DNA of 64,000 nucleotides. Origin: Escherichia coli (GTDB lineage: Bacteria; Pseudomonadota; Gammaproteobacteria; Enterobacterales; Enterobacteriaceae). The position numbers were made by a program, and so were the translations under genes. How positions within the stretch are numbered: position 1 is the first letter of the stretch; each line of letters opens with the position of its first letter. The notes under the pieces were generated by a model. That model did no database searches. It was not told where the DNA came from and worked only from the letters and a program-made list of their open reading frames with translations. The DNA is taken from assembly GCF_003018255.1 (NCBI RefSeq), contig NZ_CP027440.1; one strand, written 5' to 3'. Positions 17,945 through 27,412 of the stretch are shown piece after piece.

Positions 17945-18187
17945 CTTGCCGGTCCTGTGAGTTAATAGGGAATCCAGTGCGAATCTGGAGCTGACGCGCA
18001 GCGGTAAGGAAAGGTGCGATGATTGCGTTATGCGGACACTGCCATCCGGTGGGAAGTCATCATCTCTTAGTATCTTAGATACCCCTCCAAGCCCGAAGAC
18101 CTGCCGGCTAACGTCGCATCTGGTTCTCATCATCGCGTAATATTGATGAAACCTGCGGCATCCTTCTTCTATTGTGGATGCTTTACA
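17945..18187 (+). promoter_or_regulatory. btuB leader containing the adenosylcobalamin (B12) riboswitch
   Basis: Leader GCCGGTCCTGTGAGTTAATAGGGAATCCAGTGCGAATCTGGAGCTGACGCGCAGCGGTAAGGAAAGGTGCGATGATTGCGTTATGCGGACACTGCCA... matches the recalled btuB riboswitch; lies directly upstream of btuB. Confidence 0.85.
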
Positions 18188-20071
18188 ATGATTAAAAAAG
18201 CTTCGCTGCTGACGGCGTGTTCTGTCACAGCCTTTTCCGCTTGGGCACAGGATACCAGCCCGGATACTCTCGTTGTTACTGCTAACCGTTTTCAGCAGCC
18301 AGTAAATACTGTCCTTGCACCTACTGATATTGTTACCCGTGAGGATATTCAACGCTGGCAGTCGAAAGACCTCAACGATGTTATGAGTCATCTCCCCGGT
18401 GTAAATATCTCTCAAACTGGTGGAATGGGGACGAGTTCTTCTCTTTATGTTCGAGGCACTGAATCGCGCCATGTTTTAGTGTTGATTGACGGTGTGCCGA
18501 TGGCCCGTGCCGGTATCGACAATGCAATTGATATTAGCCAGTTCCCGGTATCACTTGTACAGCGTGTTGAATATATTCGTGGGCCGCGTTCTGCCGTTTA
18601 TGGTTCTGGTGCCATCGGAGGTGTGGTGAACATTATTACAATGAGTAATGATGAGAAAGCTCAGATCAACGCAGGAATGGGTACAAATGGTTATCAAGCC
18701 TATGATGGGGTAATAAATAAACGTTTTGGCGATACGATGGTAACAGCAGCAGGTGCTTACCAGACGACCAAAGGTTTTAACATTCAGCCTGGCTCACCAT
18801 ACAGTGGTGATAGCGATCGCGATGGATATCGCAACAAACTTTTCTGGGGGGGGCTGCAGCATAAGTTTAACGATAACTTCTCGGGGTTCTTCCGTGGTTA
18901 CAGCTACACAGCTAATAATGATTACGACCAGGGCTCGATGTATGGTTCTGCTACTGGCAACGAAGAAGCTCAGAATTACAACCAGTCCTGGGATACTGGC
19001 CTACGCTATAACTCCGGCATCTATTCGTCTCAGTTAATTGCTAACTATCAACGACTCAAGAATTATAACTACACAAATAATCTTGGTCGTTATGCGGGAG
19101 ATGCCACCCTGGATGACATGGAACAGCGTTATATTCAGTGGGGTAATAGCATTGAGGTAGGGCATGGTGCAATTAGCGGCGGGATCGATTGGAAACAGGA
19201 AAAACTGACGTCCAGCAGCATTACAAAATCAGATGATTACGAACGCGATACCACCGGGTTATACCTGACTGGACAGCAACAGATTTCCAATGTGACTTTG
19301 GAAGCTTCTGGCCGAGAAGATCATGATGAACAGTTTGGCTGGCATGGTACCTGGCAGACAGCTGCTGGCTGGGAGTTTATTGATGGCTACCAGGCAACAC
19401 TTTCTTACGGTACCAGTTTTCTTTCGCCTTCTCTTGGACAGCAATACGGGGCTGCTCGCTTTGCTTCAATTTATGGTCCTGGTATTGCAGCCAACCCAAA
19501 TTTGAAGCCAGAAGAATCTAAACAGTGGGAGATTGGAATTGAGGGGGTAACTGGGACTCTGGATTGGCGGCTCTCAGGATATCGTTATGAAATTCAGAAC
19601 CTGATTGATTATAAAAGCATAAATAATGTCAACCAGTACATTAATGTGAAATCAGCCACGATTAAAGGGCTGGAATGGACGGGAAATATTACAACCGGTC
19701 CTGTTGAACATCGCTTGACGTTACAATATGTTGACCCGCGCGATGATGAAACAGATAAAGTGCTGTACCGTCGGGCAAAACAGCAGGTTAAGTACGAGTT
19801 GACTGGACAAGCTTATGGTTTCGAATGGGACGTATCTTACCAATATATAGGTCAACGATACGACAACGCTTATGACGAGACCTCTGGCTCATCACATACA
19901 GTTAAATTAGGCGGTGTGAGCTTGTGGGATCTTGCGGTTGCGTATCCGGTCACCTCTCATCTAACAGTTCGTGGTAAAATAGCCAACCTGTTCGACAAAG
20001 ATTATGAGACAGTCTATGGCTACCAAACTGCAGGACGGGAATACACCTTGTCTGGCAGCTACACCTTCTGA
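18188..20071 (+). CDS. btuB: TonB-dependent vitamin B12 / colicin E / phage BF23 outer membrane receptor BtuB, divergent mosaic allele (627 aa)
   Basis: ORF 18143..20071; start MIKKASLLTACSVTAFSAWAQDTSPDTLVVTANRF (signal peptide plus TonB box DTLVVTA); C-terminus ...GYQTAGREYTLSGSYTF with terminal Phe; central region differs substantially from the recalled K-12 BtuB. Confidence 0.9.
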   Translation: MIKKASLLTACSVTAFSAWAQDTSPDTLVVTANRFQQPVNTVLAPTDIVTREDIQRWQSKDLNDVMSHLPGVNISQTGGMGTSSSLYVRGTESRHVLVLIDGVPMARAGIDNAIDISQFPVSLVQRVEYIRGPRSAVYGSGAIGGVVNIITMSNDEKAQINAGMGTNGYQAYDGVINKRFGDTMVTAAGAYQTTKGFNIQPGSPYSGDSDRDGYRNKLFWGGLQHKFNDNFSGFFRGYSYTANNDYDQGSMYGSATGNEEAQNYNQSWDTGLRYNSGIYSSQLIANYQRLKNYNYTNNLGRYAGDATLDDMEQRYIQWGNSIEVGHGAISGGIDWKQEKLTSSSITKSDDYERDTTGLYLTGQQQISNVTLEASGREDHDEQFGWHGTWQTAAGWEFIDGYQATLSYGTSFLSPSLGQQYGAARFASIYGPGIAANPNLKPEESKQWEIGIEGVTGTLDWRLSGYRYEIQNLIDYKSINNVNQYINVKSATIKGLEWTGNITTGPVEHRLTLQYVDPRDDETDKVLYRRAKQQVKYELTGQAYGFEWDVSYQYIGQRYDNAYDETSGSSHTVKLGGVSLWDLAVAYPVTSHLTVRGKIANLFDKDYETVYGYQTAGREYTLSGSYTF

Positions 20072-21245: not shown

Positions 21246-22787
<1,542 letters not shown>

Positions 22788-22948: not shown

Positions 22949-23132
22949 CTTGCTGGTTTGTGAGTGAAAGTCACCTGCCTTAGTATCTCAAAACTCATCT
23001 TCGGGTGATGTTTGAGATATTTGCTCTTTAAAAATCTGGATCAAGCTGAAAATTGAAACACTGAACAACGAAAGTTGTTCGTGAGTCTCTCAAATTTTCG
23101 CAACTCTGAAGTGAAACATCTTCGGGTTGTGA

Positions 23133-26036
<2,904 letters not shown>

Positions 26037-26129
26037 ACAACGCCGAAGATGTTTTGGCGGATGAGAGAAGATTTTCAGCCTGATACAGATTAAATTAACC
26101 GGCGACAAGCGGGTTAATAAAACAGAATT

Positions 26130-26249
26130 TGCCTGGCGGCCGTAGCGCGGTGGCCCCACCTGACCCCATGCCGAACTCAGAAGTGAAACGCCGTAGCGCC
26201 GATGGTAGTGTGGGGTCTCCCCATGCGAGAGTAGGGAACTGCCAGGCAT
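26130..26249 (+). rRNA. rrfB: 5S ribosomal RNA
   Basis: TGCCTGGCGGCCGTAGCGCGGTGG...CCATGCGAGAGTAGGGAACTGCCAGGCAT, 120 nt. Confidence 0.96.
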
Positions 26250-26261
26250 CAAATTAAGCAG

Positions 26262-26292
26262 AAGGCCCAGTCGGAAGACTGGGCCTTTTTGC
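26262..26292 (+). terminator. rrnB operon rho-independent terminator (single hairpin)
   Basis: AGGCCCAGTCGGAAGACTGGGCCT stem-loop followed by TTTTTGCGTTT, directly after 5S. Confidence 0.8.
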
Positions 26293-26383
26293 GTTTCTAC
26301 AAACTCTTCCTGTCATCATATCTACAAGCCATCCCCCCGCAGATACGGTAAACTAGCCTCGTTTTTGCATCAGGAAAGCAGCT

Positions 26384-27412
26384 ATGAACCACTCCTTAAA
26401 ACCCTGGAACACATTTGGCATTGATCATAATGCTCAGCACATTGTATGTGCCGAAGACGAACAACAACTACTCAATGCCTGGCAGCATGCAACCGCAAAA
26501 GGACAATCCGTTCTTATTCTGGGTGAAGGAAGTAATGTACTTTTTCTGGAAGACTATCGCGGTACGGTGATCATCAACCGGATCAAAGGTATCGAAATTC
26601 ATGATGAACCTGATGCGTGGTATTTACATGTAGGAGCCGGAGAAAACTGGCATCGCCTGGTAAAATACACTTTGCAGGAAGGTATGCCTGGTCTGGAAAA
26701 TCTGGCATTAATTCCTGGTTGTATCGGCTCATCACCTATCCAGAATATTGGTGCTTATGGCGTAGAATTACAGCGAGTTTGCGCTTATGTTGATTGTGTT
26801 GAACTGGCGACAGGCAAGCAAGTACGCTTAACTGCCAAAGAGTGCCGTTTTGGCTATCGAGACAGTATTTTTAAACATGAATACCAGGATCGCTTCGCCA
26901 TTGTAGCCGTAGGTCTGCGTCTGCCAAAAGAGTGGCAACCTGTACTGACGTATGGTGACTTAACTCGCCTGGATCCTTCAACGGTAACGCCACAGCAAGT
27001 ATTTGATGCGGTGTGTCATATGCGCACCACCAAACTCCCTGATCCAAAAGTGAACGGTAATGCGGGTAGTTTCTTCAAAAATCCTGTTGTTTCTGCCGAA
27101 ACTGCTAACGCGTTGTTGGCACAATTTCCAACAGCCCCACATTACCCCCAGGTGGATGGTTCAGTAAAACTGGCTGCAGGTTGGCTTATTGATCAGTGCC
27201 AGCTTAAAGGGACGCAAATTGGTGGGGCTGCGGTACACCGTCAACAGGCGCTGGTTCTCATAAATGAGCACGATGCAAAAAGCGAAGATGTTGTACAGCT
27301 GGCGCATCATGTAAGACAAAAAGTGGGTGAAAAATTTAATGTCTGGCTTGAGCCTGAAGTCCGCTTTATTGGTGCATCAGGTGAAGTGAGCGCAGTGGAG
27401 ACAATTTCATGA
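26384..27412 (+). CDS. murB: UDP-N-acetylenolpyruvoylglucosamine reductase MurB (342 aa)
   Basis: [34 protein letters not shown] start; FAD-binding domain; stop overlaps birA start. Confidence 0.95.

Follow-up and report, generated by a model that had tools for sequence, protein, structure and literature searches.

Genetic composition of the rrnB 3' region

To describe the 3' end of an rrnB operon we analyzed a stretch of 64 kb of Escherichia coli DNA, here referred to as the window, which shares 7.6 kb at 100% identity with the strains JNE23-011 and JNE112863. The window contains a complete rrn operon. Rfam matched the 16S rRNA (21246-22787) and the 23S rRNA (23133-26036) with a tRNA listed between them, and the last gene of the operon is the 5S rRNA gene rrfB (26130..26249, plus strand). 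The ends of rrfB were set by homology to the K-12 annotation; the Rfam match itself (RF00001, 92.1 bits) spanned 26132-26247. Two further Rfam matches are expected at this locus. These were StyR-44 (23026-23125) in the 16S-23S spacer directly before the 23S rRNA gene and a cobalamin riboswitch (18000-18122, at the edge of the searched range) ahead of a 642-aa ORF (18143-20071), which is presumably btuB.

All features from the 5S rRNA gene to murB lie on the plus strand. A pattern search of the 64-kb window found the 18-bp sequence AACTGCCAGGCATCAAAT once (26237..26254), and predicted folds placed an extended terminator hairpin behind it (26258..26292). Sequence and alignments defined a T-rich tract, TTTTTGCGTTTC, after the stem (26286..26297) as well as the murB upstream leader (26298..26383), a stretch collinear with K-12 in which 2 positions differ. 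The murB coding sequence of 342 aa (26384..27412) was taken from the ORF list and is annotated as murB in the matching E. coli genomes. The intergenic region between 5S and murB (26250-26383) is 134 nt in size, compared with 300 nt from rrfB to murB in K-12 MG1655 (L001 458-757). A simple scan of the murB leader gave zero sigma-70 consensus matches.

Two variants were observed further upstream. At position 26154, within the 5S rRNA gene, the window carries a C and JNE23-011 as well as all five other compared E. coli rrnB 5S genes carry a T (GGTGGCCCC versus GGTGGTCCC). The C may be a SNP private to the strain, the result of conversion by another 5S copy, or an error in sequencing. The 23S-5S spacer (26094-26118) showed a block substitution in comparison to K-12 (TTAACCGGCGACAAGCGGGTTAA versus TCAGAACGCAGAAGCGGTCTGA), and further versions were present in other strains and genera. 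Both versions fold into hairpins that are similarly stable (-11.6 and -11.1 kcal/mol), and the segment looks like a variable spacer hairpin in which the predicted structure is preserved.

The terminator hairpin

The intergenic region contained one strong hairpin, located 14 nt past the 5S 3' end on the plus strand and upstream of murB. Its core consists of GGCCCAGTC (26264-26272), a GGAA loop (26273-26276) and GACTGGGCC (26277-26285), forming a 9-bp stem with 7 G-C pairs; below it the 5' flank, rich in A, and the T-run form a lower stem. The stability is far above chance expectation: in a 45-nt context the fold reached -26.8 kcal/mol (z = -6.25) and 0/200 dinucleotide shuffles were equally stable. 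In the same flanks, K-12 T2 was less stable (-22.7 kcal/mol). The stem-loop is G+C-rich, a U-rich tract adjoins its 3' side, and it closes the transcription unit on the transcribed strand, as is usual for an intrinsic terminator.

A simple terminator scan of positions 26000-26600 made no call. When applied to K-12 as a control, the scan called T1 (L001 461-504) and missed T2. Both the window hairpin and K-12 T2 are missed because the stem extension uses up the T-run, and the missing call was treated as a false negative. This sensitivity of a consensus scan to the length of the stem extension is a caveat for automated terminator counts. Judged from sequence and predicted fold, the window hairpin is a functional-looking, predicted intrinsic terminator and a common allele.

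Comparison with the tandem terminators of K-12

Pairwise alignment of the window with K-12 yielded one gap of 166 nt, the remainder being near-identical. The missing 166 bp comprise the T1 hairpin, the tRNA-linked repeat (TLR), which is the small-RNA gene rrB, and a repeat of the 18-bp 5S end. K-12 carries AACTGCCAGGCATCAAAT twice, flanking T1 and the rrB TLR, and the window carries it once; the 166-bp unit of K-12 would fit at either edge of the window copy (26237..26254). Within the 64-kb window neither a second 18-bp copy, which the K-12 arrangement has about 150 bp downstream (up to 2 mismatches), nor the TLR core (up to 3 mismatches) was found. Additionally, blastn at word size 7 detected no TLR in the window and recovered 116/116 in the K-12 control. 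The K-12 TLR body, which shows three stem-loops and GGA motifs between two hairpins, is absent from the window. Rfam assigned no family to the window hairpin or the K-12 TLR at E-values up to 1.

The TLRs and the RrA, RrB and RrF small RNAs were reportedly described by Egan and Landy in 1978 and by Rudd in 1999. TLRs are recognized as a repeat class by a stretch of 18-19 bp that duplicates the 3' end of the RNA gene lying upstream (Stenum et al. 2021, PMC8144298). The operons rrnA, rrnB and rrnD have dual terminators, and their TLRs are the small-RNA genes rrA, rrB and rrF, which are transcribed via read-through of T1. Their products bind Hfq and CsrA in vitro, the phenotypes are modest, and a function has been argued from conservation between species (Stenum et al. 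2021, PMC8144298). K-12 T1 is reported to be leaky, with termination of 87% at T1 and 100% at T2 (Orosz et al. 1991, as cited in PMC8144298).

The window hairpin shares features with both K-12 terminators. It occupies the position of T2, the murB-proximal terminator of rrnB, whose 5' flank CAAATTAAGCAGAAGGCC and 3' flank including the T-tract (GGCCTTTTTGCGTTTCTACAAACTCTTCCTGTC / GGCCTTTTTGCGTTTCTACAAACTCTT) are identical in the window. However, the stem-loops are different (CCCAGTC-GGAA-GACTGGG in the window, CCATCC-TGAC-GGATGG in T2), the window stem-loop exceeding that of T2 by 2 nt in length and by about 4 kcal/mol in stability. Furthermore, the window hairpin directly follows 5S, whereas T2 follows the TLR. 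K-12 T1, which like the window hairpin is the first hairpin past 5S, has a stem-loop that differs by 2 nt in rrnB and by 1 nt in rrnA and rrnD, where the loop is GGAA as well. Its flanks (AAAACGAAAGG ... CCTTTCGTTTTATCTG) are unlike those of the window, and the rrA/rrB/rrF small-RNA repeat comes after it, whereas the window hairpin is followed by the murB leader alone.

The first-pass annotation of the window had described a short distal region with a single hairpin, built from T2-like flanks around a T1-like stem. This description held in all parts, and the K-12 sequences which it had given for T1, the spacer repeat and T2 were correct. Since flanks, leader and gene match, the window hairpin appears to be the ortholog of the T2 position, with a different stem sequence (family CYCAGTC-GRAA-GACTGRG instead of the CCATCC-NNNN-GGATGG family found at the murB-proximal position of K-12). 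Presumably it also has the role of T2 as the last stop of rrnB.

The same order of 5S, one hairpin and T-tract was found at other single-terminator ends, namely K-12 rrnG and rrnB of O157:H7, UM146 and E. whittamii. O157:H7 and UM146 share the stem family and the murB leader with the window, even though the O157 stem has a G where the window has an A, and the UM146 5' flank (TTTAGCGAAAGG) differs. The single hairpin of K-12 rrnG, unlike that of the window, belongs to the CCATCC stem family.

Distribution of the rrnB variants among E. coli genomes

A set of 5,426 complete E. coli genomes was surveyed with a K-12 query running from the 3' half of the TLR across T2 and the leader of murB; all counts were taken from BLAST coverage and identity bands and are therefore approximate. 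The query matched over its full length in 2,521 genomes, so that about 46% have the tandem form of K-12 next to murB (long form). This number includes a band of 69 records (95-99% identity, about 1%) in which, as in strain MEW, the T2 position of a long form is taken by a T1-like stem. The short form with the T1-like variant hairpin, where 5S is directly followed by the terminator, accounted for 2,302 records (about 92% identity over 150 nt, about 42%), among them O157:H7, UM146 and NC101. About 630 records (about 11%), for example Res13, combined the short length with a hairpin identical to K-12 T2. A second search with a 75-mer of the window (26236-26310) matched 128 records identically and 2,270 with at least 90% identity; another 3,098 records at 80-90% represent the other stem family.

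Four haplotypes, combining the two lengths with the two stems, were seen in an alignment with one example per class. Because a short form with a T2 stem (Res13) and a long form with a T1-like stem (MEW) both exist, stem type and the 166-bp indel are independent polymorphisms. By these counts a single-hairpin rrnB end is, as far as can be read from the genomes, an ordinary natural variant in more than half of the sequenced E. coli. Our main reading, to which we assign a probability of roughly 0.88, is that the short end with the T1-like stem is the allele of roughly 40% of E. coli genomes and forms an ordinary single predicted Rho-independent terminator of rrnB. Public genomes already contain the element, the cassette and the arrangement, and a published description exists for the cassette.

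The TLR cassette across operons and strains

K-12 carries the T1-TLR-T2 arrangement at rrnA, rrnB and rrnD. In its rrnG operon the end is short, with one T2-family hairpin; rrnE has a hairpin of its own, and rrnC and rrnH run on into tRNAs. Among the 5,426 genomes, a TLR adjoined yhdZ (rrnD) in 3,249 and murB in 2,521. No more than 1,970 genomes had it beside a flank of the rrnA type, with some matches that lack mobB resembling the rrnG context; in the strains H180-H183 a TLR was found in such a mobB-less context, possibly rrnG. No TLR match was obtained anywhere in 1,451 genomes (about 27%). The copy number of the cassette per E. coli genome ranges from 0 to 3 or more, and the cassette is commonest at rrnD.

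As a proxy for the strain we used JNE23-011, which differs from the window over 26000-26600 by one base, at 26154. All seven rrn operons with eight 5S genes were located in this genome. A TLR followed 0/8 of these 5S genes, the only match in a local blastn being the K-12 control, and an RrA/B/F-type small RNA cannot come from any rrn operon of this near-identical genome. The CCCAGTC stem was present at rrnB only; rrnA, rrnD, rrnE and rrnG carried CCATCC or CTATCC stems. Since rrnB is the only operon of this genome with the CCCAGTC stem, the T1-like stem was not taken from a resident T1. It is the rrnB terminator of the lineage itself.

The rrnE end of JNE23-011 (L087 6554-7238) also showed a different composition. 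Here, yjaB is located 125 nt past 5S, and yjaA, which follows rrnE in K-12, is absent. The terminator consists of a CCATCC-type hairpin and a REP-like sequence, compared with the CCCCGGTCC hairpin of K-12 rrnE.

Within K-12, the 18-bp repeat at the TLR end of rrnD (L008 365-348) reads CTGCCAGACATCAAAT, with the A of the local 5S variant in place of G. The terminal repeat of a TLR therefore matches its own upstream 5S, which fits a local duplication or conversion. The operons rrnA and rrnB of K-12 are identical from 5S through GGCCTTTTTGC with the exception of one loop base, and it is plausible from this identity that the long rrnB form of K-12 is a gene-conversion copy of rrnA. However, CCATCC is the commonest murB-proximal stem in other genera and hence need not derive from rrnA.

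In the literature searched, no report on the presence or absence of TLRs at the strain level was found. This unreported variation is a modest descriptive gap and no new kind of system.

The 5S-murB junction in other Enterobacteriaceae

Species-representative genomes were scanned with a degenerate murB N-terminal pattern, which yielded 69 loci; E. fergusonii was not among the loci recovered. Many draft contigs end at the rrn repeat, and short or long could not be read for E. albertii and about half of the 69 loci. Where the junction was resolvable in other Escherichia genomes it was short in 3/3 cases, with a T1-like stem in E. whittamii and a T2-like stem in Escherichia sp. E1V33 and E. coli E69. 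In E. albertii the contig was cut, and the murB-proximal hairpin (GGCCCGGTC-GAAA-GACCGGGCC) was T1-like with a compensatory pair change.

Long forms were present in Salmonella enterica diarizonae, where the contig begins inside the TLR, and in Kluyvera genomosp. 3, Klebsiella indica and Enterobacter sp. CC120223-11. Short forms with T2-like stems were present in Kluyvera cryocrescens, Superficieibacter, E. cloacae, K. michiganensis and others. These mixed states across the genera indicate that both stem families and both lengths are old and patchy. For Escherichia, the short form would be the better guess for the ancestral state. Since a TLR precedes murB in Salmonella diarizonae, Kluyvera genomosp. 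3 and Klebsiella indica, the long form may be old in the family as well.

Raoultella ornithinolytica (L037) and Enterobacter sp. JUb54 (L043) showed shortened or diverged spacers between the first hairpin and the second terminator upstream of murB. The Raoultella spacer keeps ...CCGCCATAAACGGCCAGGCATCAAAT; both spacers look like putative decayed or variant TLRs.

Origin of the short arrangement

To explain the short region, the first-pass annotation had proposed a deletion between the repeated sequences or a different ancestral arrangement, and it had taken single-hairpin reference loci as a sign that its picture of tandem terminators would be mistaken. The alignment to K-12 rrnB and other E. 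coli loci that it had suggested gave the 166-nt gap and the four haplotypes. E. coli rrnB loci with the same single hairpin number in the thousands, yet the tandem structure given for K-12 was right. The proposed deletion is supported insofar as the length difference is exactly one unit bounded by AACTGCCAGGCATCAAAT repeats. Additionally, the MAFFT gap can be placed between the T1 stem and GGCCTTT, a sequence common to both terminators, as if a deletion in a K-12-like tandem ancestor had joined the T1 stem to the T2 flanks. However, such a deletion does not produce the hybrid hairpin. A crossover between the 18-bp repeats keeps the T2 stem, as found in the short allele with the T2 hairpin, and a junction inside the stems or in GGCCTTT would keep the T1 5' flank CAAATAAAACGAAAGG, whereas the window has the T2 flank CAAATTAAGCAGAAGG exactly. 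The T1-like stem in T2 flanks is also found in the long allele of MEW, where T1 and TLR are intact, and in E. whittamii and E. albertii. We therefore consider a fusion of this kind very improbable. The alternative of a different ancestral arrangement fits the data.

The stem would need no fusion if T1 and TLR had been deleted between the 18-bp repeats of a MEW-like long allele that already carried the T1-like stem at T2. Such alleles do exist (the 69 records of the 95-99% band), and a single repeat-mediated event would give the arrangement of the window, with one base of the stem off. MEW (long) and O157 (short) have leader SNPs in common, which points to turnover of the indel in a related background, and a TLR upstream of murB is known from Salmonella, Kluyvera and Klebsiella indica. 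Nevertheless, long forms with a T1-like stem are rare (about 1%) compared with the short form at about 42%, the other Escherichia with a resolvable junction are 3/3 short, and the near-identical JNE23-011 is TLR-free at every operon, so that no donor or remnant is visible. We regard this origin as possible but rather unlikely. That the T1-TLR unit was merely dropped from the assembly by a repeat collapse can practically be dismissed. The unit is flanked by repeats and multi-copy in some genomes, and draft assemblies do break here, with many contigs ending near murB. However, the complete genome of JNE23-011 differs by one base over 26000-26600 and has TLR-free ends at its other rrn operons too, the complete genome of JNE112863 matches 26100-26500 at 99.8%, and the short form recurs in complete genomes, thousands in number, that many laboratories produced on many platforms.

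Most likely, the short form in the lineage of the window is long-standing and not a fresh deletion. Leader SNPs are common to O157 (short) and MEW (long), and likewise to K-12 (long) and Res13 (short). Their sharing between short and long alleles points to more than one indel event or to recombination. We suppose that the cassette has been gained and lost repeatedly by recombination or gene conversion. Such an exchange would use the 5S sequence upstream and the 18-bp repeat together with the terminator flanks downstream.

Proposed mechanism and implications

In the proposed mechanism, RNA polymerase passing the end of 5S would transcribe the 9-bp G+C-rich stem with its GGAA tetraloop and then UUUUUGCGUUUC. 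Formation of the hairpin would be followed by melting of the weak rU:dA hybrid and release of the transcript. Termination at this site would shield murB-birA from the very strong rRNA promoters. RrB would not be made in the strain of the window because the rrB gene is absent.

A more far-reaching view is that the rrA/rrB/rrF cassette is an accessory element with a complete null in this lineage, and that its 0 to 3 or more copies retune regulation by CsrA and Hfq or read-through into murB-birA. We hold this view as a whole to be improbable; the null state itself was demonstrated in JNE23-011, and a retuning between lineages is speculation.

For genome annotation the short end has hardly any consequence, as it is a normal rrnB terminator allele. 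The rrnB T1-T2 of textbooks and cloning vectors is the arrangement of K-12 (and A/B1-type strains) and adjoins murB in fewer than half of the complete E. coli genomes. K-12 is thus unfit as a species reference for, and not representative of E. coli at, the rrnB end. [quoted passage not shown]
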